Counted from the first letter of the stretch, positions 4,392 through 62,136 are shown. The stretch: 64,000 bases of DNA from Lachnospiraceae bacterium (GCA_021205305.1 JAJPXU010000011.1:10553-74552), one strand, 5' to 3'. The notes: generated by a model from the sequence alone, not told the origin. Translations and numbers: made by a program.

Positions 4392-4446
4392 GCACCCGGC
4401 TCGCGCGGCTTTAGCCGCAGAACTTCCCTGCCCGGCTCTGCGCATA
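4392..4446. repeat. Dispersed palindromic repeat, family E (GCGGC-TTTA-GCCGC core), copy with inverted left arm
   Basis: Shares GCGGCTTTAGCCGCA...CCCGGCTCTG(C/T)GCATA with 62053-62106 and a degenerate copy at 14270-14324. Confidence 0.8.
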
Positions 4447-4470
4447 TCTAATAAAGCATCAGCTTACGCG

Positions 4471-5142
4471 TCAACCCACAATCGTCACCAGATCCCCCGT
4501 AGCAATCTGCGCCGCGTTCGCCTCATCCGTATCAATGTGCATCTCCAGCGTAAAGCTTTCATCTACACGGATTTTTACGTGATCAAAGGTGGTGCCGCGC
4601 TCGTTATCCGCCTTAACGGAAACAAAATCACCGTCTCTGACTCCGGCTGCCTGCGCGTCAGCAGGAGACATATGGATATGACGCATGGCGACAATGCAGC
4701 CCTCATTGAGATAAATGGCTCCTTTTGGTCCGACGATTGCGATTGGCGCACTGCCCTTAATGTCGCCGGACTCCCGTACCGGCACTTTCATTCCAAGCCG
4801 GATCGCGTCCGTCGCGGAAACCTCCACCTGCGATGCTTTGCGCACCGGGCCAAGCACACGGACGTTCTCGATCGCGCGCAGCTTCAGGCCCACAATCGTC
4901 ACTGTCTCATTGGAGGCAAACTGTCCGCCCATCAGTTCTTTGCGTTTTGTAAGCTGATACCCTGAACCAAACAGGGCTTCTACATGCTCCTGCGTCAGAT
5001 GAACATGCCTTGCGGAGACACCGACCGGCACGGCAAACCCACTGCTTTTCTTTTCTATCTCCATCCGGTTGACCGCTTCGATCACCAGTCTCGTGATTTG
5101 TTCCACATTTGCTGTTTCCAAGGGTACACCTGCTTTCTGCAA
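4471..5142 (-). CDS. pduL: PduL phosphate propanoyltransferase with N-terminal encapsulation peptide
   Basis: VPVGVSARHVHL, RHIHMS, EMHIDTDEANAA; start uncertain (TTG near 5121-5142). Confidence 0.93.
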   Translation of the reverse strand: MQKAGVPLETANVEQITRLVIEAVNRMEIEKKSSGFAVPVGVSARHVHLTQEHVEALFGSGYQLTKRKELMGGQFASNETVTIVGLKLRAIENVRVLGPVRKASQVEVSATDAIRLGMKVPVRESGDIKGSAPIAIVGPKGAIYLNEGCIVAMRHIHMSPADAQAAGVRDGDFVSVKADNERGTTFDHVKIRVDESFTLEMHIDTDEANAAQIATGDLVTIVG

Positions 5143-5232
5143 CCGTGAAAAATGTCCACCTCTAAAGAGAATTCATTCCGCTTTCCTGCTCACATCCGGT
5201 TGTCAAAACCGATGTGGCCGGAAAGCAGAACC

Positions 5233-5394
5233 TAGTACCTCGTCTCCAAATTATCTCGACTTTATACTTGCCTGAATTTCCATCTGCTTCGTTGTCATCA
5301 GTCGACGTAGCCACCGCTACGCCTCCTTCTTCCGCCTTGCATATGAAAATTCATTCTGCGTCTAAAGTCGAGCTACTTGGAAGACGATGTACTA
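5233..5394. mobile_element. Fold-back (MITE-like) element with 32-bp imperfect terminal inverted repeats
   Basis: Left arm TAGTACCTCGTCTCCAAATTATCTCGACTTTA; right arm TAAAGTCGAGCTACTTGGAAGACGATGTACTA; central hairpin CGTAGC-CACC-GCTACG at 5306-5321. Confidence 0.6.
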
Positions 5395-5399
5395 AATTC

Positions 5400-5831
5400 T
5401 TATTTCAATGTCGGAAGGATCTTCTCCACATCGGTGTGCGGTCTCGGGATGACATGGGTTGCTACCAGCTCGCCCAGTCTGGACGCAGCCGCGCTGCCGC
5501 TCTCTACCGCGGATTTTACCGCGCCCACATCGCCGCGCACCATTACGGTTACCAGGCCGGAGCCGATCTTCTCGGTGCCTACGAGCGTTACGTTTGCAGC
5601 CTTACACATCTGATCCGCTGCCTCAATTGCCGCTGTCAGTCCTCTGGTTTCAATCATTCCCAATGCTTCCTGTGTCATTTTCTTTTCCTCCTTGTTGGAT
5701 GTTGTATAGTTTGTTTCCTGATTCACAGTTTCCACTTCCGCAGCCTTTTGTGCTGCTTTTGCCGTCCGTCTCGGCGCAGCTGCTTTTTTCGAAGCCGCTG
5801 TATCGGATGCTGCTTTTTTTTCGTCAGCCAT
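5400..5831 (-). CDS. BMC-H shell protein (PduA/PduJ-like) with N-terminal Ala/Lys-rich extension; second start at 5678
   Basis: [27 protein letters not shown]...[20 protein letters not shown]; RBS-like sequence before both MADEKK and MTQEAL. Confidence 0.92.
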
Positions 5832-5889
5832 GCTTCTTTTCCTCATATCCCATATCCCGGTGTAAACGAGAAATCAAAAATACTTCCGG

Positions 5890-6201
5890 TCACTCTCCGT
5901 CCGTCGTACCGCCCTGCGTTCTCCATCTGGCCGCGCTCAGCTCCACAATCCGGACAATCTCCTCATGGGGACGCGCAATCACTGCCTGGCAGACCGGCTT
6001 TTTGATTCCATTCGCGGCGGCAGCCTCCACCGCCTCTGTAACGGCAGCCACATCGCCCTGAACGATCACGGTCACAAGCCGCCCGCCGAGCTTGCGCTCC
6101 CAGGAGACCAGCTCAACGCCTGCCGTTTTGCACATAATGTCCAGCGCGTCAATCGCCGCTACCACACCCGAGACTTCTATAAAGCCATACGATTTATCCA
6201 T
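5890..6201 (-). CDS. BMC-H shell protein (divergent)
   Basis: YGFIEVSGVVAAIDALDIMCK...LGGRLVTVIVQGDVAAV...VIARPH. Confidence 0.9.
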   Translation of the reverse strand: MDKSYGFIEVSGVVAAIDALDIMCKTAGVELVSWERKLGGRLVTVIVQGDVAAVTEAVEAAAANGIKKPVCQAVIARPHEEIVRIVELSAARWRTQGGTTDGE

Positions 6202-6998: not shown

Positions 6999-8213
6999 TC
7001 AATCGTTTATAATTGCGATCTTCAGACCAGTCATTGCCAGGTTCGTCTGAAGCGCCTCGTTGATCTGATCAAGCGGGAACCGGTCGGTAATCAGGTCCGA
7101 AATCGGAAGCCCGATCGCCTTTGCTCTCCGCAGGAAATCAAAGGTCGTCGCATAGTCGCGCAGAGTGTATACCCAGGAGCCCACGATCGTGATTTCCTTT
7201 GAACAAATGTCAAAATGCGGGTTGATTGTCGCGTCGCCGCCGTTTACGAAGAAGCCCAGCTCGCAGAGCCCGCCGCCGTTGCGGATAAATTTATAGATAT
7301 TAGAATGTCCGCCCGGCGCGCCGGTACACTGGAACGCGAAATCCGCCAGATGTCCGCCGAATGCGTCTTTCACGCCGCCTGCCAGGGCTTCGATTCCCTT
7401 GAAGTTTTTGAAGTTAACAGAGGTTTCCGCACCCATCTTTTTCGCAAACGCCAGCCGTCCTTCGTTGCCATCCACCGCGCAGATATTTTCCACGCCCATC
7501 GTGCGCAGCACCGCAATGCACAGAAGGCCAATCGGGCCGCAGCCCTGCACGACCACTCTGCTGTTAAAGCGGAGGATGCCGGTGGTCTTCGCTCGCTCTA
7601 CCGCGTGCACCAGCACTGCCGACGGCTCAATCAGGATTCTCGAATCCAGATCCAGGTCGCTCACGTTGAAAAAGGTGGAGCCAAACCCGCCGCCGCGGAT
7701 AAAGATATAATCGGAAAACCAGCCGTTCAGGTGAATGTCATCGTCCGGCAGAAGCCCATACACATCCGAGCCGCCCACATTTTTCTTATTCAGATCAAAC
7801 ATCGTGATTTCCGGGTCATCCTTGAAAATCATACAGGTAACGATCTTATCGCCGATTTTCACCGGTTTTCCTGCTGTATCGGTCTTTACATTTTTTCCCA
7901 TCGCCACGATCTCGCCGGTGCCCTCGTGTCCCAGCGCGACCGGAATCAGGCCAAAGGGGTCATTTTTGAACTCATGCGCGTCTGTCCCGCAGACACCGCA
8001 GCCCTCTACCTTTACCAGAATATCATCATCACCCACCGGCGGAATCGGATATTCCTTCACATCAAAATGATTCTTCGCCGTCAGCACCGCAACATGCGCC
8101 GTCTTCGGGATGCCGCCGCGCGCTGCGCCTGCAGAAGCCGCTGCCGTGCTGCCATTCATCCCGGCAAGAACCTGTCTGACAATCTCTTCTATGTTTGCAC
8201 TGTTCATTTCCAT
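6999..8213 (-). CDS. Zn-dependent (MDR) alcohol dehydrogenase, propanol-forming, with N-terminal encapsulation peptide
   Basis: CGVCGTDAHE, GHEGTG, GCGPIG; N-terminal NIEEIVRQVLAGM. Confidence 0.92.
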   Translation of the reverse strand: MEMNSANIEEIVRQVLAGMNGSTAAASAGAARGGIPKTAHVAVLTAKNHFDVKEYPIPPVGDDDILVKVEGCGVCGTDAHEFKNDPFGLIPVALGHEGTGEIVAMGKNVKTDTAGKPVKIGDKIVTCMIFKDDPEITMFDLNKKNVGGSDVYGLLPDDDIHLNGWFSDYIFIRGGGFGSTFFNVSDLDLDSRILIEPSAVLVHAVERAKTTGILRFNSRVVVQGCGPIGLLCIAVLRTMGVENICAVDGNEGRLAFAKKMGAETSVNFKNFKGIEALAGGVKDAFGGHLADFAFQCTGAPGGHSNIYKFIRNGGGLCELGFFVNGGDATINPHFDICSKEITIVGSWVYTLRDYATTFDFLRRAKAIGLPISDLITDRFPLDQINEALQTNLAMTGLKIAIIND

Positions 8214-8228
8214 AAATTCTATTACCTC

Positions 8229-9638
8229 CTACCGGATACACAGACTGTCTGTCATCACACAGCGTCTTCTCTTCGTAAAGGTACTGGCGCTGGTAAGTCC
8301 CTCGCCGGTGCGGCTCGCGATGGTGAAAGTACAGAAGCCCTCGCCGCCAAAACCAATGGCGGAGTAGGACGGCCCGTTTTTCACCAGAATGGCCGTGTCA
8401 ATCGCTTTCGCATATTTCGTAATGTTGTCCACATTCTTAGAATGAATGTGCGCGGAATGGCGGTTGCCATGCTCCAGCCAGACGGCCTGCTCCACCGCGT
8501 CGTCAAAATCCTTCGCCCGCACCATTCCGAGAATCGGCATCATCAGCTCCGTCGTAATCAGCGGATGCTCCTTCGGTCCCTCAAAAACGATACAGCGGAT
8601 GTTTGCCGGGGCGTCCACACCGATCATGGCAAGCAGGGTGCGCGCATCGCGTCCCACGCATTTGCGGTTCAGCTTTCCGCCCTCAAGCACGACTGCCGTG
8701 AGCGCGTCCTGCTGCTCTTTCGATGCCAGATAGCAGTCATTTTCCGTGATCAGATAGTGCATCAGCTCATCCGCGATGGAGGACACCGCTACGATCTCCT
8801 TCTCCGCGATACAGGGCAGATTGTTGTCAAAGGTACAGCCATTCACAATATCCCGCGCCGCTTTGCGGACATCCGCAGTCTCGTCTACCAGCGCCGGAGG
8901 ATTGCCCGCGCCTGCGCCGATGCCGCGTTTACCGGAGGAAAGCACCGCCGTCACCACACCCGGACCGCCGGTCGCAGCAATCAGGGGGATGTCCTTGTGC
9001 TTCATCATGACATTGCTGGTCTCCAGCGTCGGCTTCTCTACGGTCACGCAGACGTTATCCGGGCCGCCCGCTTCCAGGGAAGCTTCATTAATCAGATTGA
9101 TCGCGTAAATCGACGTCTGAATTGCCTGCGGGTGCGGGTTAAATACCACCGTGTTGCCGCCCGCCAGCATTCCGATTGTATTGCAAAGGACGGTCTCGCT
9201 CGGATTCGTACACGGTGTAATCGCACCGATCACACCAAACGGCCCCATCTCAATCAGGGTCAGCCCCCGGTCGCCGGACCAGGCGGTCGTCGTGATATCC
9301 TCCGTACCGGGCGTCTTATCCGCCACCAGATGATGCTTCAGAATCTTGTCGCCGACATTGCCCATGCCGGTCTCTTCCACACCCATGCGCGCCAGTATTT
9401 CCGCATTCTCATGGATTTTCTTTCTTATACAGGAGATAATTTTTTCACGCTGGTCCATGGACATGACCCGCACGATCTTCTGCGCGCTCTTCGCGGCCTC
9501 AATCGCCTCATTCATATCCTTGAAAATACCGTGTTTTCCCGCGGAACCGGTATTTCCCCCGCTCGTCTGACCCTGCGCGTCCAGATTTTTCAGCACTGCC
9601 TGTACAATCTCCTGTACCATCGTTTCATTGATTGGCAT
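8229..9638 (-). CDS. pduP: CoA-acylating propionaldehyde dehydrogenase (PduP/EutE)
   Basis: PCTNPSET, ATGGPGVV, GAGAGNPP, catalytic NNLPCIAEKE; N-terminal MVQEIVQAVLKNL. Confidence 0.95.
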   Translation of the reverse strand: MPINETMVQEIVQAVLKNLDAQGQTSGGNTGSAGKHGIFKDMNEAIEAAKSAQKIVRVMSMDQREKIISCIRKKIHENAEILARMGVEETGMGNVGDKILKHHLVADKTPGTEDITTTAWSGDRGLTLIEMGPFGVIGAITPCTNPSETVLCNTIGMLAGGNTVVFNPHPQAIQTSIYAINLINEASLEAGGPDNVCVTVEKPTLETSNVMMKHKDIPLIAATGGPGVVTAVLSSGKRGIGAGAGNPPALVDETADVRKAARDIVNGCTFDNNLPCIAEKEIVAVSSIADELMHYLITENDCYLASKEQQDALTAVVLEGGKLNRKCVGRDARTLLAMIGVDAPANIRCIVFEGPKEHPLITTELMMPILGMVRAKDFDDAVEQAVWLEHGNRHSAHIHSKNVDNITKYAKAIDTAILVKNGPSYSAIGFGGEGFCTFTIASRTGEGLTSASTFTKRRRCVMTDSLCIR

Positions 9639-9650
9639 GCGCTCTTCCTC

Positions 9651-10505
9651 CTAGGCACCCAGCTGCTCCAGTACCTGCTTTGTAATCTTCGCCACCAGCT
9701 CCGGATCTACGCCGTCCGCTTTTTTCTCAGACGAATTCTTCCCTACAAAATCATACTGATAGCCCGGAAACTGCTTGTAATCCTCATCCGCGCAGATGCC
9801 GCAGTTGTGGCAGTTCTTTCCATCCTTATTCTGGCAAAGGTTCGCCGGATGCTTGCCTGCCATGCCGAATTTGCGACGAATCGCGTAGAGCTTCTCAATG
9901 TTCTTCTCATCAAATTCCTTCGGGCCGCCCAGCATCTTCGACTGGTAAAGAAGCTGTGCGTAAAACTCTACCGACTCCATCTTCATATAGGCTGCGTTCA
10001 GATCGGTCGACCAGGTCAGCGCGCCGTGGTTCTCCAACAGCACTGCGTCGAAATACGGAAGGTATTTCTCCAGGCGGTCCGGAATCTCATTCGTCGACGG
10101 TGTGCCGTACTCCGCGATCGGCACACAGCCAAGCGCAATAACCGCCTCCGGCATAATCGGCTGCGTCAGCGGAATCCCCGCGATCGCGAAAGAAGTCGCG
10201 TAGATCGGATGCGCGTGTACCACGCTTCCGACATCCGGTCTTTTCTCATAGACTCTCATGTGCATCTTGATCTCGGAAGACGGCTTGAACCCCGGGTTCG
10301 CCTGAATCACTTCGCCCTTCGCATTCACCTTGCAGATGAAGTCCGGGGTCATAAAGCCCTTTGAAACACCGGTTGGCGTGCAGAGGAACTCATTGTCATT
10401 CAGCTTAACGGAAATATTTCCGTCATTCGCCGCTACCATGTTGCGATCATAGATACGCTTTCCAATGTCGCAAATCTGTTTTTTGATCTCATACTCATTT
10501 ACCAT
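9651..10505 (-). CDS. Class II aldolase (fuculose/rhamnulose-phosphate aldolase-like) with C-terminal encapsulation peptide
   Basis: GNIS, PSSE, HAHP and NHG Zn motifs; C-terminal LVAKITKQVLEQL. Confidence 0.92.
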   Translation of the reverse strand: MVNEYEIKKQICDIGKRIYDRNMVAANDGNISVKLNDNEFLCTPTGVSKGFMTPDFICKVNAKGEVIQANPGFKPSSEIKMHMRVYEKRPDVGSVVHAHPIYATSFAIAGIPLTQPIMPEAVIALGCVPIAEYGTPSTNEIPDRLEKYLPYFDAVLLENHGALTWSTDLNAAYMKMESVEFYAQLLYQSKMLGGPKEFDEKNIEKLYAIRRKFGMAGKHPANLCQNKDGKNCHNCGICADEDYKQFPGYQYDFVGKNSSEKKADGVDPELVAKITKQVLEQLGA

Positions 10506-14153: not shown

Positions 14154-14269
14154 CACAACCCAACGCATATATTTGTTATTTTATGTTGTTTTTTGATATG
14201 TTTTTTGTGGTATTTTGTTGAACTCACGATATAGTTGCAAAATGCATGCCATTCACCCCCTGCTTGCCC

Positions 14270-14324
14270 GCGTGAGCCGGGTGCGGCATCAGCCGCAAAG
14301 CACCTTGCCCGACTTGTGCGCATA
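14270..14324. repeat. Family E palindromic repeat, degenerate copy
   Basis: GAGCCGGGTGCGGC-ATCA-GCCGCAAA...TTGCCCGACTTGTGCGCATA. Confidence 0.7.
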
Positions 14325-14599
14325 GAAAAATCCGGCCATTCCGAAGCATTGCTTCAAAACAGCCGGGTCTTCCTCATTTGTACTTTTTGTATTCCTTTGC
14401 AGTTTAAAATCTTTTGTGTCTTAAAATCTTTTTTCTTCCGTTTCTTAAAATCTTACGTATCTTACCGTCTTATGTACTCCACCATCTTCTGTACTTTCTC
14501 TGCCATCTGTGACACACTCTCTTTTGTACATTTCAAAGCTTTCTCGTCTTTTGTATTCTTCAAGTCTTTTGTACTCTCCGGCATCTTTCGTAAAAGTGG

Positions 14600-14624
14600 A
14601 GTAAAACGACTTACGTCGTTTACT
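14600..14624 (-). terminator. Likely intrinsic terminator after ppdK
   Basis: AGTAAACGAC-GTAA-GTCGTTTTACT hairpin 12 nt after the stop codon. Confidence 0.55.
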
Positions 14625-14636
14625 ATTATCCAAAGA

Positions 14637-19852: not shown

Positions 19853-19885
19853 TGTAACTTCCTCCTGAAATTCTGTTTGTTTCAA

Positions 19886-19956
19886 TTCAGAACAGTATCA
19901 AATTGAAAAGACAGACTGTGCAGATTTATCTGCTAAAAGCGGCCTGCTGTTCTGAA
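19886..19956. repeat. Family D element with TTCAGAACAG...CTGTTCTGAA inverted ends
   Basis: Both ends and the internal GAAAAGACAG and GGCCTGCTGTTCTGAA are shared with 60159-60259. Confidence 0.75.
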
Positions 19957-20157
19957 TGGTTTCCTTTGAAAATACCGATTTCTTATAAAAAACAAACCGG
20001 ATTTTCCCGCAAAGCAGTATAGCAGAATTTTCCTGATACCGCAAGATGGAATCTGGAGATTTCACACTTTTTACTGACCTGTTTTCACTATTGCATTTCA
20101 CAGGCGATATCACCAGGTTCAATCGTCGGTATTTTTCAAAATACATACCTGCTTCGG

Positions 20158-26169: not shown

Positions 26170-26212
26170 CTCGCCATCGGGTGAAGTTCAATTCTAATCG
26201 GCAAGGTTCTCC
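26170..26212 (+). repeat. Degenerate family A palindrome overlapping the stop codon of the COG1361-like gene
   Basis: CTCGCCATCGGGTGAAGTTCAATTCTAATCGGCAAGGTTCTCC aligns with 28391-28430. Confidence 0.65.
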
Positions 26213-42341: not shown

Positions 42342-42377
42342 CAGTTTAGAACATCTGTGGCCTGCTGTTCTGAACTG
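42342..42377. repeat. Internally deleted family D hairpin
   Basis: CAGTTTAGAACA-TCTGTGGCCTGC-TGTTCTGAACTG; 19 nt identical to 60241-60259. Confidence 0.7.
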
Positions 42378-42380
42378 ATG

Positions 42381-43049: not shown

Positions 43050-43054
43050 CCTTT

Positions 43055-43085
43055 CCTGTCTTTTCGATGCTGTTCTGAACTGTTA
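43055..43085 (-). repeat. Family D left end between era and recO
   Basis: Reverse complement TAACAGTTCAGAACAGCATCGAAAAGACAGG matches 60153-60188 with a 5-nt gap. Confidence 0.75.
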
Positions 43086-43092
43086 CAACAAA

Positions 43093-44322
43093 TCATACAA
43101 GATCCGTCTTATCGTAGCCAAAATTTTTAATCATATAATCACTGTCGCGCCAGTCCTTCTTTACCTTCACCCAGAGCTGCAGATTGACCGGTTCTTCCAG
43201 CATCTGCTCAATTTCATAGCGCGCCTGTGAGCCGATTTTGCGCAGCATCGCGCCCTGCTTGCCGATCACCATGCCTTTGTGAGACTCTTTTTCGCAGATA
43301 ATCGTCGCCTCAATATCCATGATCCAGTCTGAAGTCTCACGCACATCCACTTCCGCCTGTTCACGGCGGCTGAGCGTATCATCCACATTCGTCCGGGTTT
43401 CCGTCAGCGTCCTTCCATTCTTTTTACCCTGGAAGTCCTTCCTCTCCTCATTCGGCAGCAAGCCAGGCTGCCCATTCTGCTCCACTTCTCGTGAGACAGT
43501 CTTTTTCGCATGTTCATGGCGGTGTTTCTTCCGCACGGCCTCGGCCCGTTTCTCCCTGTGCTTCTGGCTGCCCGCAGGCCGCTCCTTCATCACTTCGATT
43601 GAAACCGCGATCCCATGTGGAATCTCCTCCTCCATGCAGCGCAGCGTCTTCTCCCGGATCAGCTCCGCCACAATCTGTTTCTGCGGCTGGTCGGTCACGG
43701 TATCATCGTCGTAATATTTCGGTCCGTATGGCAGACAGCGGAATATTGCGCTGATCACCTCGTCCATATGCAGACCCCGCAGTGCGCAGACCGGTATCAC
43801 AGCATCAAAATCCAAAAGCTCCCGGTAGACATCCAGATAACGCGGAATCTCACTTTTCGCCACGGTATCCATTTTATTCAGAATCAGGATCACCGGAATC
43901 TTCGTGGAGCGGTATTGCCCCCTCCCTTCGGTCGGCGGCAGGTCGGGCTGCCCATTCCAATGCGCTGTGCGCGGGGCAGCCGCTCGGAGCATCTGCGCAA
44001 TATGCTGATCCCCTCCGCCAACCGAATCCGTCGGCTCAACCAGCCATAATACCACATCCACTTCCCGCAGCGTGGACTCCGCTGCCGTCACCATATATTC
44101 GCCCAGCTTATTTTTGGCCTTATGGATACCGGGCGTGTCCAGAAAAATAATCTGCCCCTGTTCGGAGGTATAAACCGTCTGAATCCTGTTTCGCGTCGTC
44201 TGCGGTTTGTTCGACGTAATCGCGATTTTCTGGCCGATCAAGTGATTCATCAATGTCGACTTTCCAACGTTCGGCCGCCCGATCAGAGTCACAAAACCGG
44301 ATTTAAAATTTGCGTTTTCCAT
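43093..44322 (-). CDS. era: GTPase Era with two unusual insertions
   Basis: GRPNVGKST, PQTTRN, DTPG, NKMD, KH-domain VIGKQGAMLRKIG; 409 aa. Confidence 0.97.
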   Translation of the reverse strand: MENANFKSGFVTLIGRPNVGKSTLMNHLIGQKIAITSNKPQTTRNRIQTVYTSEQGQIIFLDTPGIHKAKNKLGEYMVTAAESTLREVDVVLWLVEPTDSVGGGDQHIAQMLRAAAPRTAHWNGQPDLPPTEGRGQYRSTKIPVILILNKMDTVAKSEIPRYLDVYRELLDFDAVIPVCALRGLHMDEVISAIFRCLPYGPKYYDDDTVTDQPQKQIVAELIREKTLRCMEEEIPHGIAVSIEVMKERPAGSQKHREKRAEAVRKKHRHEHAKKTVSREVEQNGQPGLLPNEERKDFQGKKNGRTLTETRTNVDDTLSRREQAEVDVRETSDWIMDIEATIICEKESHKGMVIGKQGAMLRKIGSQARYEIEQMLEEPVNLQLWVKVKKDWRDSDYMIKNFGYDKTDLV

Positions 44323-48408: not shown

Positions 48409-48521
48409 AATCGGACAGAATGTATGTTCACATTCTGTCCGATTATTGTCCATGATTTGCGCAGCAAATCGTGGACACAACCCTCGCCATCGCAGAGCAA
48501 TTTTAAATGGCGAGGCTTTCC
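48409..48521 (+). repeat. Intergenic C-B-A palindromic mosaic
   Basis: AATCGGACAGAATGT/ACATTCTGTCCGATT, TGTCCATGATTTGC-GCA-GCAAATCGTGGACA, CCTCGCCAT...ATGGCGAGGCTTTCC. Confidence 0.85.
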
Positions 48522-48550: not shown

Positions 48551-51307
48551 TTATCTCTCACTTCTTCTTCTGCGGATAAATACAACCAGCAGAATAATGA
48601 AGATCAGGCAGGCCACGACCGCCACTGCCGCTACTGCAAGGAGCGGGGTCGAATCGCCGGTCTCTACGGATTCAAGCGAAGTCACAATATTGAATGTGAC
48701 TGAGGTCGTAGATGTCGTTCCATCCGCCACCCAGGAGCTGCCGTCATAAACCTGTCTCGCAAACGTCACATTCAGCGTATACTCACCGGTCGACTTGATC
48801 GACATCGAGGTCTCATACGGAGATGATGACCAGGTATTGGAAACATTGCCAATCGAATATCCCGTCGGTACATAGCGGATGTCGCCCGGATTCGGGTTGG
48901 TATTTGACATACCTGCGCCCACCGGCGTAAAGGTAAGCTTCTCATTTGCCACATAAGAGCCGCCCGAGGTGATACCACTGATGTAGTTATCCGATGCAGT
49001 CGGGCCATCCTCATAGGTTGCTGAAACAGTTACATCGCTTGCCGGCATCGTGAAAGACGTCGTTGCTCTGGACGCATCCGCAAATGTCACATTGCCGCTC
49101 GTCGCTGTCCATGTACTGAATTCCTTCCCGCTCGCCGGATAATTCGAGGAAATGGTAACCGTATCCCCATAGTAATAATAGGTCTGGCTTGTGCTGCCAT
49201 TTTCCACTGTAACTTTATACTGTACCTGCTTATAAACGGCCGTCAGAGTCACATTTGCGGACGGCATCGTGAAGGTCGTCGCAGAAGCAGACGCATCTGT
49301 GAGAGTCACATTCTGCGTATCTACCGTCCAGTAATCAAAGGCATAGCCCGCAGCCGGTTCCGCAGCTGTAATTGTAATTACTGTCCCTGCAACACTCTCG
49401 GTATAATCGGCCGTGCCGTTTGTCAGGGTGACACTGTAAGTCACACCCGTATAATTCGCCACAAAAGTCATATCCTCTGTAACTGTCACCGTAATGGTAG
49501 AGGAAGCCGCGTCATCGCCAAGATCATACGCACCGTCATTGACCGTCCAGCCGGAGAATTCCTCCCCGCTCGCACTCGCGTTTGCCGTTACAGTTACCTG
49601 TGTACCTTCCTCATAAGAATGCTCAGTATAAGAACCGTCCAGGAGACCGTTGGAAACCTTTACCGTATACGTATTCGGCAGGCTTACATAAACCGCCGTA
49701 ACTTCCACATCACCGTCCGGCATTGTAAAAGTGGTCGTCGCTGAGGTTTCATTTGCGAATGTCACTTCCGTCGAACCGGAATTCGACCAGTGATCAAACT
49801 CCATCCCTTCCGGAGCTGTCTCAGCGGCAATGCTCACGGTACTGCCGTACTCAAATGTACCTGTGGTCGCACCTGAACCGGTCGTCCCACTGACTACTGT
49901 CACTGTGTGGGTAGCCACATCAAAGATCGAAGAAAGGGATACCTCCCCCGCCGGCATCGTGAATGTCCATGTTCCGTCGCCAACAGCGGTCAGGGTAATC
50001 GCCGCGTCATTCGTAATCATCCAGCTGGAAAATACCGTTCCGGCAGAAGCTGCCGGCTGCGCTACTGTCACCGTATCGCCAACCGCGTAATTACCTACGA
50101 GTGTGCCATCCACAGTCACCGCGTACGTTGCCGCTGTCTCAGACTCTGTAGCCGTCTCAGATTCTGCCGCCGTCGTCTCAGCAGCTGCCGCTTCATCTGT
50201 CACATCAATCACTACGATATCTTCTGCATTCTCCGCCGTATAGCTGGCCAGGATCGTTACATTCTCCGACGGCATCGTAAAGGTGATCGTCTGCTGCGTC
50301 AAATCCTCCAGCGCCACATTCAAAGAGGCTACGTACCAGGAAGAAAATGTATAACCATCCAGATCTTCTGCGGTTAAAGTAACCGCAGCACCCTCCGCGT
50401 AGGTAACGGTCTCTGTCTTCGCATATTCGTCCGCGCCTGTATCATAATTTACCGTCAGAGCCGCATAGACAATATCTGCTGCCGCAGGGGTGTCATCGCC
50501 AATCACTACCACCTCCGTGGAAGCAGGCGCAGATGTCTCTGCTGTTACATTAGAACTGCCGGAATCCGTCACCGCTGCCGTTGTCTCCGACTGGCTTTCA
50601 ACAACCGCATTTGAATTATCGACGGCTGCTCCCGTCTCCGTTTCTTTCACTGCAATCTCCTGATAGGTTGCGGTAACCGTCATTTTCGTACCAGGCATAG
50701 TAATGGTCGTCTCAGCACTGGACGGATCGGTAATCACTACATCATCCTCTGAGTCAATCACCCATTCCACAAACTCATAGCCCTCATCCGGATCCGCCGC
50801 CGTGATCGTCACAGTCTCGCCGCTCTGGTAATACGCGATATCTTTACTCGGATCCTCTTCCGTCATGGCAGCTTTTTCTTCATCCGTGAATTTGTAATGA
50901 TTCTCCGTCGTCGCACCCTGTTCTGATGTCCATGCAGACACGGATGTACCATCCACCACAGTCAGAACATAGCCTGCCGGAGCCAGCTGGATCGATGCGG
51001 GAGTGACCGTACCATCCTCCGCATTCACAGCCTCCGTATAAGTCACCTGATAAACCGTGTCCTTATCCTCAGGATTCGTCCAGGTGCCATTCTCCGCACT
51101 AAGCGTTCCTTCCTCATTTGTAATCGAAATCACCGTGCCGTCCGCAATCCCTGTCAGGCTGTCGCCCGGGAAAAGCACCGTCTTCTGCTCATTTGCGTTC
51201 ACAGCAGAAGCTTCATAAGAAGTCGCCGCCATCACCTGCGCCGCCGGAACGCACCCCATCACGCAGCAAAGCAGCAGGCTCAGAATCTTTCTCTGCATTT
51301 TTTTCAT
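48551..51307 (-). CDS. Cell-surface protein with about seven divergent InlB-B-like repeats and a sortase-like anchor
   Basis: Signal peptide; repeats VTITA....GY.F..W......T.FTMP..DVTVTA.Y; C-terminal VETGD, TM and RRRR. Confidence 0.85.
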   Translation of the reverse strand: MKKMQRKILSLLLCCVMGCVPAAQVMAATSYEASAVNANEQKTVLFPGDSLTGIADGTVISITNEEGTLSAENGTWTNPEDKDTVYQVTYTEAVNAEDGTVTPASIQLAPAGYVLTVVDGTSVSAWTSEQGATTENHYKFTDEEKAAMTEEDPSKDIAYYQSGETVTITAADPDEGYEFVEWVIDSEDDVVITDPSSAETTITMPGTKMTVTATYQEIAVKETETGAAVDNSNAVVESQSETTAAVTDSGSSNVTAETSAPASTEVVVIGDDTPAAADIVYAALTVNYDTGADEYAKTETVTYAEGAAVTLTAEDLDGYTFSSWYVASLNVALEDLTQQTITFTMPSENVTILASYTAENAEDIVVIDVTDEAAAAETTAAESETATESETAATYAVTVDGTLVGNYAVGDTVTVAQPAASAGTVFSSWMITNDAAITLTAVGDGTWTFTMPAGEVSLSSIFDVATHTVTVVSGTTGSGATTGTFEYGSTVSIAAETAPEGMEFDHWSNSGSTEVTFANETSATTTFTMPDGDVEVTAVYVSLPNTYTVKVSNGLLDGSYTEHSYEEGTQVTVTANASASGEEFSGWTVNDGAYDLGDDAASSTITVTVTEDMTFVANYTGVTYSVTLTNGTADYTESVAGTVITITAAEPAAGYAFDYWTVDTQNVTLTDASASATTFTMPSANVTLTAVYKQVQYKVTVENGSTSQTYYYYGDTVTISSNYPASGKEFSTWTATSGNVTFADASRATTSFTMPASDVTVSATYEDGPTASDNYISGITSGGSYVANEKLTFTPVGAGMSNTNPNPGDIRYVPTGYSIGNVSNTWSSSPYETSMSIKSTGEYTLNVTFARQVYDGSSWVADGTTSTTSVTFNIVTSLESVETGDSTPLLAVAAVAVVACLIFIILLVVFIRRRRSER

Positions 51308-51435
51308 AGTATACCCCTACCTTTCGTCTCATTTCATGCAAATTGGTCTCGCATTTGAGATACTGCGATTATAGCATAGCATCAGGGAAAACAAATGATG
51401 GTTTTTCTGTGATTTTCTTAAGAAATGGTTAAAAT

Positions 51436-51815
51436 GTAAGCGGGACGATAAGCCGGGTTCTGTCGTGGGTGATCATCTATCCAGGCCTGTCGTTGCCGAC
51501 AGGCTCGAGCGACCTACCTGAGGCTGACGGGCCGTCTGCTTCCTGCCCCGGTCTGGCCGGGGCAGGGGGTTCGCCTCGATGCGGTCTTGCTTCGGATGGG
51601 GTTTACATATGCCGTCTCTGTTGCCAGAAACACGGTAGTCTCTTACACTGCCCTTCCACCCTTACCGACTCGAAAGTCGGCGGTTCATTTCTGTTGCACT
51701 ATCCCTGGAGTCGCCTCCGCCGGACGTTATCCGGCATCCCTGCCCTGTGAAGCCCGGACTTTCCTCGTCTGGCGTCTTTCGACTTCTGCCAGCCGCGATC
51801 ACCTGTCCCACTTAC
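51436..51815 (-). ncRNA. rnpB: RNase P RNA (type A)
   Basis: Minus strand has GAGGAAAGTCCGGGC, AGTGCAACAGAAA, AAACCCC..CCGAAGCAAG and ACAGAACCCGGCTTA conserved regions with paired ends. Confidence 0.97.
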
Positions 51816-51851: not shown

Positions 51852-51869
51852 TGAAAACTTCTTCTGTCT

Positions 51870-53606
51870 TTATTTCTCGAAGCACCCACCTCCGATAAAT
51901 TCACGAATCAGAGAATGATTCGGAATCGCGTCGCTCGGAATCGGCAGGAAATAATCCAGAAATTTCAGCAGACGTTTGGCTTCCTCGTACTCCGGCTCAT
52001 CCGGCCGAATCGAAAAAAGAAGTGGTTCCGCATACTGTTTTAACACAGCAAGTTCGTATATCAGCGTCGAATTAAAAATATAATCCGCGGATTCCTGGAA
52101 TGGGAAAATATAATTGGATTCGCCCCGGCGCACGGACGGCCACATGGCAATCGTCCCCCGTGCATCTGTGCCGCGCATACGGGCATCCCGCACCATCCGG
52201 CGAAGAAGGCGGCCATCCGTCGTAGGGATTCGATTGTGTTCATCAATGTTCAGCTGTGTGAGGGCACTGATATAAATCTTTACCTTATGGTCCGCATCCA
52301 GGCGCCAGGTCAGCTGGTCGTTCAGGCAGTGGATACCCTCTATAATCAGGATATCCTGTTCTCCCAGCTTTGTCTTATTCCCTTTGTACTCACGCCTGCC
52401 GGTCTTGAAATTAAACGTCGGAAGTTCCACACACGCTCCCTGAAGAAGCGCGAGCATATCTTCATTCAGTTTTTCCACATCGATTGCTTCCAGACATTCA
52501 TAGTCCGGTTTTCCATCTGCATCAATGGGGGTACGCTCCCGGTCTACAAAATAATTATCTGCCTCGATCGGATGCGGCTTCAGGCCGTGTACAGAAAGCT
52601 GCGTAGAAAGCCGGTGGGAAAAAGTCGTTTTCCCGGAAGAAGACGGCCCCGCAATCAGAATCACCCGCTTTTCTGGCGACGCTGCGATTTGTGCTGCCAT
52701 TTCGGCAATCTTCTTTTCGTGATATGCTTCCTGAATCATAATCAGGTCTTTCACACGATGGTTTACAATATATGTATTCAGTGCGCCGACCGTCGGAATG
52801 CCCAGACGCTCGCCCCATTCCATCGAGTCTTTCTGCGTCTTCCAGATCTTATGATGTGGGATATGAACGGCCTGTGCTTTCTTTTGAGCGCCTGTATCAG
52901 GCGGTTCTGTCGGCGGCAGGTTCTTTGAAAGCTTGCCCGGCTCCATCTGCGACGGGAAACACAAAAGGAAGCCATCTTCGAACAGGCGAAGGTCAAAGCA
53001 GGTCAGATAAGAGGCATCCGGAAGCATATATCCGTAATAATAATCCTCGAAATTCTCAAGATTGTAAATATTTACCTTCGAAGAGCGACGGTAGCGGAAC
53101 AATTCTTCCTTATCATACATCCGGTATTCATGAAATCTTTCACACGCCTCCCAGGTCTCAATGGTTTCCTTGCGGATGGGAGCCGCTTTGCGTACCAGCG
53201 TTTCCATATACTGCCTGACTTCATTTAAAAATGTTTCCGTCAGCGCGACACGCCCCTGCATCGTGCAGTAATAGCTGTCTCCCACTGAAAAGTGAACACT
53301 GACGCAATCAAGATTCCGGTTATCCCCGACTACGTAATACATACTTTTTAACATCAAAAGTACCAGAGAACGCCGATAGGTCTCACAGCCAGCCTTATCC
53401 TGCAGCGTCACAAAGCGCACCTGTGCGCCGTCCCCTGGGGTTTTTACGAGTTCACGCAGTCTCCCGTTTTCGTTTACCAGCACAATCGGGTACGGAAAAT
53501 TCTTCTGATGTGCGGCCGCAATCTCCCGAAATGTCACATCTGCCGGATAGCTTTCCGGTATTCCTTCTATATATACTGTGATTGATTTTTCTTTGTTCTC
53601 ATCCAT
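51870..53606 (-). CDS. Nucleoside/uridine kinase-family protein with ThrRS-like N-terminal domains
   Basis: C-terminal IAGPSSSGKTTFS, IEGIH, DGRLLRRMVRD; N-terminal TGS/editing-like region. Confidence 0.85.
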   Translation of the reverse strand: MDENKEKSITVYIEGIPESYPADVTFREIAAAHQKNFPYPIVLVNENGRLRELVKTPGDGAQVRFVTLQDKAGCETYRRSLVLLMLKSMYYVVGDNRNLDCVSVHFSVGDSYYCTMQGRVALTETFLNEVRQYMETLVRKAAPIRKETIETWEACERFHEYRMYDKEELFRYRRSSKVNIYNLENFEDYYYGYMLPDASYLTCFDLRLFEDGFLLCFPSQMEPGKLSKNLPPTEPPDTGAQKKAQAVHIPHHKIWKTQKDSMEWGERLGIPTVGALNTYIVNHRVKDLIMIQEAYHEKKIAEMAAQIAASPEKRVILIAGPSSSGKTTFSHRLSTQLSVHGLKPHPIEADNYFVDRERTPIDADGKPDYECLEAIDVEKLNEDMLALLQGACVELPTFNFKTGRREYKGNKTKLGEQDILIIEGIHCLNDQLTWRLDADHKVKIYISALTQLNIDEHNRIPTTDGRLLRRMVRDARMRGTDARGTIAMWPSVRRGESNYIFPFQESADYIFNSTLIYELAVLKQYAEPLLFSIRPDEPEYEEAKRLLKFLDYFLPIPSDAIPNHSLIREFIGGGCFEK

Positions 53607-54501
53607 CTGTCATACCCCCGTTCTCTCCATATAACCGCAGTGCCTCATCCATCTGCCTGATGCAGCGCTGTACCTCCAGCTCCCGCATCCTGGCTGTTTC
53701 GCTTTTCCCCTGCTTCAGAGATTTCAAAACGTTCTCCTGCGTCGCACGTTCATGCAGCATAAACTGACGCAAAACAGGATGGCGCATTTCCAGCAGCCTG
53801 GGGCCAAAAAGCAGCTCTGTCTCACGCATCGCTGAACCCAAAGGGTACCATTTCGCTTTCATCATTGGATAATACTTTCCGTCCTCGAAAATCATATCCT
53901 CCCGCACGATTTTCCATCCGTTTTGCTCTAACCAGGAACGCACCAGCGAAATTTCCGACTGAGGCTGCAAAATCAGCTCTGTAGTGCTTGCCAAACACGC
54001 AGTGCTTGCCAAACGCGCAGCGTTTCTTAAATTGCAAGCGCGATCTGCCCTCGCCGGGTGGCATCCTCGCCCTTCGGGCGGGATATCCGCCGAAGCGCAG
54101 CGAGGGGGCGTTTCCAAAGCATTTCCTAAATCGCCGACGCGATGCTCCCCTGTCTGAATTACACCGTCCTTCCTCCCGTTCTCCAGAATTCGAATCGTCA
54201 GTGCGCCGCCCATCCCGGCAATCACTATACTCTGTGCCTCATTCGGCGCAAATGCCTTCAGGCCATCGGAAAGCCTGGTCTCGATTTTTTTTTCCAGAGC
54301 GTGTTCCCGGATGTGCGCGTCAGCACGCGCAAGCGGACCGCGGTTGATATCCGCCGCGATTGCGCGCGGGATAATCTGCTGTTCCATCAGATAAATCGGT
54401 ATGTATGCATGGTCCGTCCCGATGTCCGCAAGGACAAGCCCGGGCGTCACCATGTCTGCGACTGCCGCCAGTCGTTTTGATAACTGCATAAAATCCTCCA
54501 T
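53599..54501 (-). CDS. trmK: tRNA (adenine22-N1)-methyltransferase with a large insertion
   Basis: DIGTDHAYIP, RLSDGL, IAGMGG, ILQPQS; follows rpoD. Confidence 0.93.
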   Translation of the reverse strand: MEDFMQLSKRLAAVADMVTPGLVLADIGTDHAYIPIYLMEQQIIPRAIAADINRGPLARADAHIREHALEKKIETRLSDGLKAFAPNEAQSIVIAGMGGALTIRILENGRKDGVIQTGEHRVGDLGNALETPPRCASADIPPEGRGCHPARADRACNLRNAARLASTACLASTTELILQPQSEISLVRSWLEQNGWKIVREDMIFEDGKYYPMMKAKWYPLGSAMRETELLFGPRLLEMRHPVLRQFMLHERATQENVLKSLKQGKSETARMRELEVQRCIRQMDEALRLYGENGGMTDG

Positions 54502-57371: not shown

Positions 57372-57461
57372 CGTCTCATTCTCCTCACCAGAGTCCGCTT
57401 TGTCTGACTTGTCCCTTTCCAGTCACATCTTTTTCCACGCATTTTGGAAAAATAGCAACGA

Positions 57462-57479
57462 TTCAGGACAGCAGGCCGC
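57462..57479 (-). repeat. Family D right-end fragment
   Basis: Reverse complement GCGGCCTGCTGTCCTGAA is one mismatch from 19939-19956. Confidence 0.55.
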
Positions 57480-57480
57480 A

Positions 57481-58835: not shown

Positions 58836-59006
58836 TTCTGTCACTCCTCTTTCAGTACAAGCCGCATATTCGCATCCAACACCAAATTTCTCTCCAGACA
58901 GCACAACAAATGTTGCAGGTCACACCATAGCCAAATTTACCTTATGTCAGCCACTACAGGTGTGACCAGTATCCAGCTAGTACCCTGTCTGGTTTGAGAG
59001 ATGAGT

Positions 59007-59922: not shown

Positions 59923-60132
59923 TTACAGTCCCAGCCCGGTACCGGCCTTCCAAAGTCTCACCGCATTCAAAATCATCAGTACACCGGTCGCTACGCCTGT
60001 CACCAGTACAACGATGCCAAGTACCAGATTCCATACGCCTGCTTTCTCTGTCGCTCGTACCATCCGTTCATTCATGTCCAGATCCTCCTTGTCACCCCAT
60101 TCATCATATTCGGTTTCCATCATCCCATCCAT
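59923..60132 (-). CDS. Small membrane protein
   Basis: Hydrophobic hairpin; abuts the vanZ start. Confidence 0.65.
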   Translation of the reverse strand: MDGMMETEYDEWGDKEDLDMNERMVRATEKAGVWNLVLGIVVLVTGVATGVLMILNAVRLWKAGTGLGL

Positions 60133-60158
60133 CTCTTTTCATACATTTTCGTTAACAG

Positions 60159-60259
60159 TTCAGAACAGCATCGAAATGAAAAGACAGGTGCTGAGCGCCA
60201 GTGGCGCTCGCTTAGCGCCGACCGAAGCGAAGCGTAGACCTGTGGCCTGCTGTTCTGAA
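60159..60259. repeat. Family D element, longest copy
   Basis: TTCAGAACAG...CTGTTCTGAA ends; internal GAGCGCCA-G-TGGCGCTC hairpin and CGCCGACCGAAG. Confidence 0.78.
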
Positions 60260-60292
60260 TAGTTACCATTTTCGATATAACATATGCTGCGC

Positions 60293-60973
60293 TTACCTGG
60301 CACCGTATGTTTCATAATACGCGTCAATCGCAGCTTTTATCTCATCATCGATGACAACCCTGCCCTTGTATTTCTTTCCATACAGGTGTTCCACGACCTC
60401 AGCCATCGTAACAATAGCGGTGGTCTGTATTCCATAAGTCTCTTCAATCTGCCGCAGCGCACTCTTTTCTCCCGTACCGCGCTCCATACGGTCCACAGAA
60501 ACAACCAGGCCAAGCACCTCTACCTCTCCCTGTGCCCGGATAATCGGGAGCGTCTCCTGAATCGAAGTCCCCGCGGTCGTCACATCCTCGATAATCACCA
60601 CGCGGTCGCCATTACAGATCGGGCTGCCGAGCAAAATCCCCTTATCTCCATGATCCTTAACTTCCTTGCGGTTCGAGCAATAGCGGATATCTGCCTTATA
60701 TTTGTCGCTGATCGCCATAGTCGTTGCAACCGAAAGCGGAATCCCCTTATAGGCCGGTCCAAACAGCACATCAAAATCCAGGCCAAACTTTTCTTTGATC
60801 GCCTGCGCGTAATATTCGCCCAGCCTGCAAAGCTGCGCTCCCGTCCGGTAAAACCCGGTATTAATAAAAAACGGCGTCTTTCTCCCGCTCTTCGTCACAA
60901 AATCGCCGAAGCGAAGTACGTCACAATCTACCATAAACTCGATAAAGTCCTTTTTATAGGCTTCCATAGTCAT
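60293..60973 (-). CDS. pyrE: Orotate phosphoribosyltransferase
   Basis: LRFGDFVTKSGRKTPFF, FGPAYKGIP, NRKEVKDHG, IIEDVTTAGTS. Confidence 0.97.
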   Translation of the reverse strand: MTMEAYKKDFIEFMVDCDVLRFGDFVTKSGRKTPFFINTGFYRTGAQLCRLGEYYAQAIKEKFGLDFDVLFGPAYKGIPLSVATTMAISDKYKADIRYCSNRKEVKDHGDKGILLGSPICNGDRVVIIEDVTTAGTSIQETLPIIRAQGEVEVLGLVVSVDRMERGTGEKSALRQIEETYGIQTTAIVTMAEVVEHLYGKKYKGRVVIDDEIKAAIDAYYETYGAR

Positions 60974-61048
60974 AAATCTCCTTTGCAGTCATCACTCTCG
61001 TTATTTTTGTTCAGTATACCACAGAAAAACCTCCTGTTCCACACTTTT

Positions 61049-61939
61049 TTATTCTCTTCGGAACCTCGCTTCTACCTCGCGTGCTGCATCTTCCATTTTT
61101 CGGTCAAATTCTTTCTTTTCATCCGTCGTATGCGGCAAACCCGCGCACAGCTCATAAAGCTCCCGATACTCGTCCCGGATGCCCTGCGCGTGCGGCACAC
61201 GATAAGCACCGGCATCGCTGCCCGGCGCAATCTTCACCCCATATTGAAAGCCCTTTCGAATGATCGCACCCTGCCGCTCTTTAAGACGGCACAGCGACGC
61301 ATCGTCATAGCGCCCGCTTCCAATCAGATTGGAAATGGTCACAAAGGTCGGCACCCAGATCGTCCGGCTATCACGCAAGGCCAGCAGGCAGTCTTCATCC
61401 ATAAAATTGCCATGCTCGATGGAATCCACTCCCGCGTCGATCACCGCCCGCACCGCGTCGGCTCCGTTTGTGTGCGCCATCACGGCAAAGCCCTCCTCAT
61501 GGGCAATGTGAATCATTTCGCGGATTTCTTCCCGGTCAAGAGAGCTTTCTGTGAGCGCGCCCTCACGCTCAAAATCCAGGATGCCGGATACCATTATTTT
61601 AATAAAATCCGCCCCGGCCGCACCCGCTTCCTTTACCAGTTGATGGTATTCCTTCATCGTGTCAAATCCGCGCCCGACAATCTTACCGTAGTGACCGTTT
61701 TTGTGAATCCCAAAAATCGGAGTACGGTAGGTAATCCCGTACTCCGGTGCCAGCTTCGCCGCTAACGCCGACGCCCCATAATGATCGCCGCCATCGCGCA
61801 GGTAAATCACTCCGGCTTTGGCATAGGCAGCCAGCTTTTCGCGGATATCCGCCTCGTCCACGCCCAATTTGTAATGAGCCGCCGCCGCCCGGTAGTTCTC
61901 GCCGTTCATAAAAATATGCATATGACATTCGTAAAACAT
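61049..61939 (-). CDS. Amidohydrolase-family metalloenzyme
   Basis: ECHMH, IKIMVSG, MAHTNG, SIEHG, GSDAG. Confidence 0.88.
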   Translation of the reverse strand: MFYECHMHIFMNGENYRAAAAHYKLGVDEADIREKLAAYAKAGVIYLRDGGDHYGASALAAKLAPEYGITYRTPIFGIHKNGHYGKIVGRGFDTMKEYHQLVKEAGAAGADFIKIMVSGILDFEREGALTESSLDREEIREMIHIAHEEGFAVMAHTNGADAVRAVIDAGVDSIEHGNFMDEDCLLALRDSRTIWVPTFVTISNLIGSGRYDDASLCRLKERQGAIIRKGFQYGVKIAPGSDAGAYRVPHAQGIRDEYRELYELCAGLPHTTDEKKEFDRKMEDAAREVEARFRRE

Positions 61940-62018
61940 AGGAATCGCTCTCCTTTTCCTCTGAGTCATTATTTCCGTTCGCGATCGTGTGATCGAGCAG
62001 AAGGCAGTCCTGCACAAT

Positions 62019-62136
62019 CGGATAGGGAGAGTTCTCTCTCCCCTATCCGTCTGCGCGAGCCGGGTGCGGCTTTAGCCGCAAAACTCCTTACCCGGCTCTG
62101 TGCATAAATACGTAAGGGATGGGCAAGCCCATCCCC
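62019..62136. repeat. Cluster of three hairpins including a family E element (62053-62106)
   Basis: CGGATAGGGAGAG stem; GAGCCGGGT...ACCCGGCTC enclosing GCGGC-TTTA-GCCGC; GGGATGGGC-AA-GCCCATCCC. Confidence 0.8.

Follow-up and report, generated by a model that had tools for sequence, protein, structure and literature searches.

A 64,000-nt stretch of a Lachnospiraceae draft genome (contig C35, 10553-74552; hereafter the window, with positions counted from its first letter) contains several families of short palindromic repeats. We consider these repeats to be mobile, selfish, and clade-specific elements that are tolerated in frame within genes, and assign this reading a probability of about 0.8. 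The genome, labelled G000, comprises 3.12 Mb in 173 contigs and is 91% complete; related genomes compared with it carry further G-numbers (G001, G010, G015, G018, G031, and G033), of which G018 is 100% complete. The window appears to sample a clade-specific population of small non-autonomous repeats that would propagate as nucleic-acid hairpins. At least three kinds are proposed, namely a MITE (miniature inverted-repeat transposable element) with terminal inverted repeats and target-site duplications (family T), hairpins resembling repetitive extragenic palindromes (REPs) at the 3' ends of genes (D, S58, and S146), and coding-compatible hairpins that make no target duplication (GA-cis, P39, and A/BC). 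A first-pass annotation of the window had described selfish, mobile, and modular palindromes that enter coding sequence. This description is borne out by the target duplications of T, by unoccupied sites and successive intermediate forms in sister species, by nested insertions, and by restriction to one clade. Its framing as a single system like the bacterial interspersed mosaic elements (BIMEs) built from REPs does not hold, as at least three mechanistic kinds were found instead.

The families are spread throughout the genome. Self-comparison identifies 592 repeat segments with at least four copies (median 76 nt), which amount to 58 kb or 1.9% of the genome, and 72 of these segments are near contig ends. 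The motif CCTCGCCAT occurs seven times in the window against 0.92 expected, a count reached in none of 100 shuffles. A genome-wide census with iterated nhmmer profiles gives 14 to 159 matches per family: T 159 (38 full length), D2 95, M51 71, S58 67, GA-cis 65, D1 53, S146 42, A2 36, P39 32, and A and B 14 each. Restriction of the copies to the window, which would have argued against a mobile system, is therefore ruled out. Every copy listed in the first-pass annotation was recovered in its place by repeat finding, BLAST, and profile scans, with five copies of family A, four of B/C, five of T (previously named D), and three of D (previously named E) located in the window. Families left unnamed there are GA-cis, the 39-nt module P39, S58, S146, and an element of 186 nt whose inverted ends span 47 nt.

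T is a classical MITE with swappable hairpin cargo. Its termini are 19-bp inverted repeats (GTAACWRTTCAGAACAGCA), and perfect 8-bp AT-rich target duplications are found at no fewer than 14 full copies. The window copy at 60152-60266 (60144-60274 with flanks) is bounded by the 8-bp direct repeat CATTTTCG at 60144-60151 and 60267-60274, and carries an M51 hairpin as cargo at 60190-60238. T lengths are quantised at 162, 213, 263-265, and 314 nt, the step being one 51-nt hairpin module, M51. The core TTCAGAACAGCA has 242 matches in G000 with 49 close inverted pairs, and the T pattern occurs 39 times in G018 compared with zero for a control. Internal helices covary between copies (CGAAATG/CATTTCG, CGAGAAG/CTTCTCG, and CAAAAAG/CTTTTTG). 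In sister species T is 93-99% identical to the G000-derived consensus, while flanking genes are 80-93% identical. At one orthologous site a 227-nt copy in G000 is matched by a 37-nt mini-T in G033, which indicates that cargo changes in place. T is presumed to be moved by a cut-and-paste DDE transposase supplied in trans.

Other T copies in the window include a short MITE at 19868-19967 (profile match 19881-19961) upstream of the phosphofructokinase gene, and a mini-T at the recO 3' end (42343-42385) composed of two inverted termini with almost no cargo. A T end on the minus strand, consisting of a terminus and subterminal block (43047-43088), fills the gap between era and recO and contains the recO ribosome-binding site, and a solo terminus (57449-57480, minus strand) lies between dnaG and an HD-domain gene. 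Across the genome, many T copies closely follow -10-like boxes or closely precede ribosome-binding sites. Solo or truncated termini often do both, with a -10-like hexamer immediately before them and a ribosome-binding site 20-40 nt further on. Many mRNAs may therefore owe their 5' ends or leaders to T elements.

GA-cis corresponds to an Rfam motif (RF02987), and 51 copies in G000 pass the Rfam threshold. One of these, at 43907-43987 on the minus strand (49.4 bits, the gathering score being 34.7), forms a 75-nt net in-frame insert in the GTPase domain of era. The 25 inserted residues are present only in G000 and absent from 19/19 relatives compared; era is 305-330 codons long in most congeners. 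An older, decayed insert of ~82 residues in the KH region (43324-43569, minus strand) holds a GA-cis-like NGQPGLLPNEERK stretch and is confined to the subclade of G000, G015, G018, G010, and G001. A GA-cis copy with a nested P39 (54049-54086) is located at 54001-54121 on the plus strand (element 54009-54114), within a trmK-like open reading frame (ORF) at 53599-54501. This insert is read in frame, antisense, as ETPPRCASADIPPEGRGCHPARADRACNLRNAARL, and residues 111-169 have no counterpart in trmK orthologues of 245-272 codons.

For most GA-cis loci, a query made of the joined flanks aligns straight through in sister species. Clean empty sites were found, including those of seven GA-cis loci, at which base-level alignment gives net inserts of 72, 75, 75, 78, 78, 78, and 78 nt. 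The 5' end of GA-cis (GCGCC...) is sharp and preceded by a host A in 9/9 junctions examined, GTTTCC followed by 0-3 nt closes the element at its 3' end, and no target duplication is present at the junctions compared. Stepwise insertion is seen at C125:42890, which is empty in G015, contains GA-cis in G033, and contains GA-cis with P39 in G000. There P39 is inserted between CTG and CCGCCGA of GA-cis, and in M51 modules it occupies the equivalent place, before CACCGACCG. Within GA-cis, and likewise within M51, P39 targets a single defined site. Copying of the outer stems from the target was considered, and is hinted at in the C125 and A loci; the other junctions have no such relation.

P39 also forms head-to-tail arrays with a 39-nt period at C54:55947-56175 (at least five units), C49:3670-3860, and C24:19443-19632. 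Two tandem units are found in each of the agmatine deiminase gene and a gene with a RelA/SpoT domain, giving tandem 13-residue peptide repeats. At C112:6863-9046, a large serine recombinase of 728 codons (Resolvase, Recombinase, and Zn_ribbon_recom domains) contains an in-frame GA-cis::P39.

The A, B, and C hairpins of the first-pass annotation together make up a single two-hairpin unit, ATGTCC..GGAC-GnAGG-CCnnGCCATCG..CGATTnnnnATGGCnnGG-CTCTCC, with an extra B hairpin between the two hairpins in one subfamily. Profile scans place A copies at 26170-26211, 27955-28000, 28039-28086, 28387-28429, and 48482-48520, and B/C hairpins at 28004-28030, 28316-28346, 28355-28382, and 48447-48477. The module orders A-BC-A (27951-28086) and C-B-A (28316-28435) are as previously described. 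The A-BC-A mosaic, on the minus strand with an 84-nt period, lies in frame within the ORF at 26194-28233 and reads LAIEQSSIQNGEALQ-NMSRFSQRIEDEG-LAIEQSSIQNGEALQ. In this surface-protein gene, G010 lacks an A module, G031 and G015 each carry one, and G000 carries A-BC-A, the steps being 39 and 84 nt. The C-B-A mosaic is intergenic (plus strand), and its A copy gives the TAA stop (28411-28413) of an ABC ATPase. As the C-terminus of this ATPase ends in ...MMREITNRIE* in G031 and G010 and in ...VMRRASPL* in G000 and G015, the A copy has replaced the former ending and supplies the stop. The 36-nt B hairpin of this mosaic (28352-28387) is missing in G015. A degenerate A module at 26170-26213 (plus strand) overlaps the stop codon (26194) of the surface-protein gene. 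Comparison with relatives confirms in-frame copies and one of the two stop-codon donors proposed earlier. The remaining window copy is an intergenic BC-A unit (48447-48521, plus strand) between a Lit-like gene and a surface-protein gene with InlB repeats, preceded by a separate perfect 15-bp hairpin at 48409-48444.

A 94-98% identical A-BC-A-BC mosaic 40 kb away, outside the window (C35:78975-79470), is non-coding and has the opposite orientation relative to its gene; the level of identity points to recent copying. At this locus a T-box leader (69.5 bits, under the gathering score) comes first, then the mosaic and an aminoacyl-tRNA synthetase gene, the mosaic being situated in the 5' leader between the T-box terminator and the ribosome-binding site. 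The chief long repeat of G000 is a set of at least six paralogous AAA_35/PDDEXK-type genes of ~550 residues (MGYYLNPEDV...RPRRFGKS...), located at C97:12253-15586, C50:27279-28986, C125:34256-35927, and on C110, C145, and C161. One paralogue contains A-BC and GA-cis inserts, and the other copies compared lack both. The long repeats of G000 were considered as insertion sequences, and were found instead to be these paralogues, none of them a recognisable transposase, and surface proteins.

Residence in coding sequence differs between families. Counting a copy as inside an ORF when an open frame of at least 200 codons extends at least 50 codons on either side, 38/61 internal GA-cis copies (62%) qualify, compared with 64% for random positions, and most other GA-cis copies abut gene ends. 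The inside-ORF share is 44% for P39, 36% for A, and 33% for B; it is 4-9% for D, T, and S58, and 0-9% with F16 included. Consensus frames free of stop codons number 5/6 in GA-cis and A and 6/6 in P39 and B; T and S58 have stops in most frames (5/6) and D in 3/6. Insert sizes in genes are multiples of three (36, 39, 72-78, and 84 nt). Removal of the inserts as introns was considered, but translation is favoured by insert lengths divisible by three and by the absence of stop codons in the frames used. The host may therefore translate the elements as extra loops, which would match their entry into coding sequence, with new peptide segments, that the first-pass annotation had likened to Rickettsia palindromic elements (RPEs).

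GA-cis is read in six frame and orientation classes, of which the preferred one accounts for 20/38 copies and gives the peptide ETPPRxxSAAxR..ENAxxL. For P39, the usual reading is DIPPEGRGCHPAR (10/14 copies). The Pfam architecture is normal in 20/20 host ORFs tested. These include a GH2 beta-galactosidase (LacZ; three copies), FeFe-hydrogenase, PheT, a GH94 phosphorylase, ValRS, an AlaX-like protein, two BcrAD-type activases, the large serine recombinase, ABC transporters, a rhamnosidase, agmatine deiminase (with two tandem P39), SbcC, and an MFS transporter. The host proteins appear to tolerate the inserts, which are probably surface-exposed loops. In a set of 5.8 billion proteins the trmK insert peptide is found in only five others, which are unrelated enzymes, the named ones originating from Lachnospiraceae metagenome-assembled genomes (MAGs).

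Conservation in GA-cis tracks base pairing and not residues. RNAalifold analysis of 35 copies from G000 gives 20 pairs, 13 of them with double compensatory changes (for example, AU 20/GC 8/UA 6 and GC 12/AU 11/CG 6). In GA-cis, D2, T, and S58 the two strands differ in folding energy. The strand that folds better lies antisense to the host mRNA in 26/38 genic GA-cis copies, runs opposite to the neighbouring genes for D2 in 35/46 co-directional gaps, and is the mRNA strand for S58 in 35/41. GNA and TAAA loops dominate, as described in the first-pass annotation, the commonest being GAA/TTC, AGT/ACT, TAAA/TTTA, and GCA/TGC. The heptamer GCGAAGC is ~6-fold enriched in the repeats, with 106/871 genomic occurrences within the 1.9% repeat fraction. 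GNA triloops of the GCGAAGC and GCGCAGC type form unusually stable DNA mini-hairpins. Because such loops suggest a single-stranded DNA form, the elements may propagate via single-stranded DNA hairpins.

D, S58, and S146 are REP-like hairpins that gather just 3' of genes. The first hairpin of D has a GTAG...CTAC head (GAGTAGGAG...CTCCTACTC), and D alone combines the GTAG head, extragenic position, and 3'-end location of REP palindromes. D2 is found in 22 convergent, 46 co-directional, and 5 divergent contexts. In the window, a D copy with an inverted left arm lies at 4390-4446 (plus strand; D2 matches at 4390-4406 on the minus and 4404-4446 on the plus strand) between pduL-like and RnfC-like genes. 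A nested hairpin at 14257-14336 (plus strand; profile match 14270-14324), upstream of the glycyl-radical enzyme gene, reads GAGCCGGGT-GCGGC-loop-GCCGC-bulge-GCCCGACT. The two-hairpin element at 62015-62136 (plus strand; D1-like 62018-62046, D2 62053-62108) is 3' of gatB, where matching sequence is also present in G015 and G033, and an additional hairpin at 62117-62136 lies beyond it. The S146 hairpin AGTAAAACGAC-TTAC-GTCGTTTACT (28-42 copies in the genome) is just 3' of the PPDK gene at 14600-14629 (plus strand; profile match 14600-14626), and S58, GTTGCAGGTCACACC...CAGGTGTGACCAGTA, is detected by nhmmer at 58901-58975 (plus strand; profile match 58912-58971). The ~186-nt element, F17, is located between microcompartment shell genes at 5221-5406, is matched by nhmmer on both strands, and has 18-32 copies in the genome. 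At C93:17135-17285 in G000, a P39 5' arm and its exact reverse complement (CCCTCGCCGGGTGGCATCC...GGATGCCACCCGGCGAGGG) form a long perfect palindrome within S58.

None of the families extends beyond one genus, within which GA-cis and T reach high numbers in a single subclade. Seven congeners hold 20-51 GA-cis copies each and the rest 0-3, and 16 further genera of the order hold none. These seven are also rich in T, of which a few diverged copies occur elsewhere in the genus, and D is found in these seven and three others. The T consensus has no match in plasmid and phage collections. Rfam searches at a permissive E-value on the T, P39, D, and A/BC loci found nothing relevant, only the T-box. 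A match to an already described regulatory class, which would also have spoken against mobility, is present in part, as GA-cis matches an Rfam motif, but with 62% of its copies in ORFs the cis-regulatory leader role is contradicted.

Several observations weigh against the repeats being mobile elements with a dedicated enzyme. As had been noted earlier, the window contains no transposase. Mobilisation by REP-associated tyrosine transposases (RAYTs), also proposed in the first-pass annotation, is unproven: Y1/HUH genes (PF01797) are absent from the G000 assembly and from complete G018, and nhmmer places none of 14 families within ~1.5 kb of the Y1 loci of congeners, which are not flanked by the repeats as in a REPtron. 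For T, the GTAA... termini and 8-bp duplication may fit the IS66 family; no partner was found, the IS66 DDE domain (PF03050) being absent from G000, G015, and G018. An IS66 of a distant relative was rejected as the source of T, as its ends are GTAAGCG and not the T terminus. G018 has neither Y1 nor IS66 yet holds 26 GA-cis copies as well as T copies, and contains no long T-bounded element, only solo and short copies. Since the genomes compared are short-read drafts, the absence of an autonomous element is weak evidence. Gene calls are ORF heuristics, and translation of the inserts is deduced from intact frames only. Further, some empty sites are not naive. The "empty" C125:42890 site of G015 retains a 26-nt GA-cis-like stretch, half an element is present at C14:9724 in G015 and G033, TGGAGAG...CTTCG is kept at the A site in G010, and a mini-T in G033 stands in for the full T of G000. 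Slippage, deletion, and gene conversion therefore add to diversity beside transposition, or sometimes replace it, and evidently remodel copies already in place.

These observations bear on an alternative in which GA-cis, P39, A/BC, and M51 spread without any dedicated transposase, through hairpin-stimulated template switching, microhomology-mediated indels, or gene conversion. Such a scenario would account for short direct repeats at several junctions (CGGCGAKGG at C14:9724, and CTTCG flanking the 39-nt A insert), the fuzzy 3' ends, the in situ change of cargo at the orthologous T site, tandem arrays with 39-, 74-, and 84-nt periods, and the lack of a candidate enzyme in G000 or G018. We nonetheless think it unlikely, as new copies are found in unrelated genes without homology to the donor, the sharp 5' junction always follows a host A, and P39 enters two distinct host modules at one and the same internal point. 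Together these three features suggest sequence-specific cleavage and joining. Strong stem covariation and strand-asymmetric folding of GA-cis, D2, T, and S58 would fit a reading of the repeats as functional RNA signals kept by selection at each locus (cis leaders, 3' stabilisers or terminators, or small RNAs), with GA-cis a genuine regulator. The position of D, S58, and S146 3' of genes, the few divergent D2 (5), the agreement of the stable S58 strand with the mRNA (35/41), and the several T copies between -10-like boxes and ribosome-binding sites also fit this role. It is nevertheless improbable as a general explanation, since GA-cis is found in ORFs (62%) in both orientations and six frame classes, presence varies among close species at unrelated genes, T has target duplications, the stable D2 strand is opposite to the mRNA in 35/46 co-directional gaps, and copy number is zero in most congeners. 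Exaptation of single copies is possible.

Selection at the protein level is the least credible of the alternatives, with a very small chance of being correct. It would treat the in-frame copies as functional peptide or linker modules spread by recombination, and would explain the preferred frames (20/38 GA-cis and 10/14 P39) and the maintenance of open frames in hosts that include essential genes. Against this, five other frame and orientation classes are used, copies also lie between genes, conservation follows base pairing, orthologues lack the segment, and no Pfam domain coincides with it, with only 6 proteins of 5.8 billion sharing the trmK insert peptide. Selfish mobility is thus preferred, and mobility, nesting, in-frame residence, and clade restriction are directly observed. 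GA-cis, P39, and A/BC would be moved in trans by an HUH-like or other enzyme that makes no target duplication, although assignment to any specific enzyme class is doubtful. Tentatively, and at somewhat less than even odds, these three may form a coding-specialised hairpin class, stop-free in nearly all frames and with lengths divisible by three, that shows site-specific mutual nesting, enters genes (essential ones among them) at the rate of unselected random insertion, and is moved by undescribed machinery that would recognise single-stranded DNA hairpins, make no target duplication, and differ from any recognisable Y1/HUH or IS66 enzyme. If so, the Rfam GA-cis "RNA" would be the footprint of a mobile system and an ongoing source of peptide loops in the proteins of gut Lachnospiraceae.

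The window is otherwise an ordinary chromosomal stretch transcribed almost entirely from the minus strand, and the source names of related proteins support its placement in Lachnospiraceae. It encodes a glycyl-radical-enzyme microcompartment locus, PPDK and PFK, a cluster of two-component, ABC, and surface-protein genes, era-recO, RNase P RNA, dnaG, and gatB. The class A bacterial RNase P RNA is full length at 51433-51814 (minus strand, 293 bits). In the microcompartment locus, a 1049-codon open frame on the plus strand (7215-10364) overlies three long minus-strand ORFs (6999-8213, 8229-9638, and 9651-10505), probably as a shadow frame. Upstream of the glycyl-radical enzyme gene, a gap of 549 nt contains, at 14340-14600, TCTTTTGTAC/T about five times and CTTAAAATCTT three times in one orientation, which could be candidate regulator sites for the microcompartment operon. 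Low-complexity GTCTC/GATTC repeats in three surface-protein genes (652-863, 27182-27291, and 50130-50173) encode linkers rich in Ser, Asp, Thr, and Glu and have no relation to the hairpin families.

To our knowledge, selfish palindromes residing in frame are textbook only for Rickettsia, where the mechanism was never found. A culturable clade of gut Firmicutes with dozens of recent copies, stepwise states, and nesting brings within reach of experiment both the mechanism and the consequences for proteins such as Era, ValRS, and PheT. There are also practical consequences, as reading GA-cis as a regulator would mislead annotation, and the repeats break MAG assemblies and inflate apparent protein novelty in gut metagenomes.

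T resembles bacterial MITEs (Correia, RUP, and Nezha/Chunjie-type) in its inverted termini, 8-bp duplication, length below 320 nt, lack of an ORF, and high copy number. It differs in that its interior consists of variable, independently recurring hairpin modules and not a deleted transposase gene, and no autonomous partner was found. Occasional intragenic MITEs have already been described (PMC10969869). The D family shares with REP/BIME-RAYT systems the GTAG...CTAC head and location 3' of genes, and the families more widely share GC-rich imperfect palindromes in mosaics. REPs are rarely found inside coding sequence, whereas several of the present families are, and Y1 is lacking in G000 and G018. 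GA-cis may also resemble palindrome-associated transposable elements (PATEs) derived from IS200/IS605, with which it would share the lack of target duplication, subterminal hairpins, and insertion after a fixed base; its target in nine junctions is only one or two bases, and its 3' end varies by 0-3 nt. More generally, the 5' junction after A, variable 3' end, hairpins, and site-specific nesting of the families without target duplication recall HUH-type single-strand transposition.

The Rfam GA-cis entry (RF02987) derives from a survey of 224 motifs (PMC5737381), whose main text is silent on GA-cis. The two-hairpin consensus and covarying stems are the same. However, the entry is filed as a small or cis-acting RNA from an intergenic screen, whereas here the copies are mostly in ORFs (38/61 in long ORFs, in both orientations, and so not in non-coding positions), vary in presence, and carry nested insertions.

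The closest parallel is provided by the RPEs, described as palindromic and in frame in unrelated genes (Ogata et al. 2000, 2002, as summarised in PMC10969869). Both systems comprise several short palindromic families that lie in frame in unrelated, often essential genes, add an extra peptide, also occur between genes, and have no known enzyme. The likeness would be one of working alike and not of membership in RPE-1 to RPE-10. The host here is a free-living gut Firmicute and not an obligate intracellular alphaproteobacterium, the elements are 36-84 nt compared with ~100-150 nt, and their sequences are probably unrelated. They also nest in one another and ride as MITE cargo, and stop-freeness in five to six frames and gene occupancy at the random level are documented for the Lachnospiraceae elements. 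No report of such elements in Clostridia was found in the literature. GA-cis in Rfam and the RPEs are known; what would be new is the occurrence of RPE-like elements in gut Firmicutes, their nesting at specific sites, a MITE as carrier, and the reinterpretation of GA-cis.

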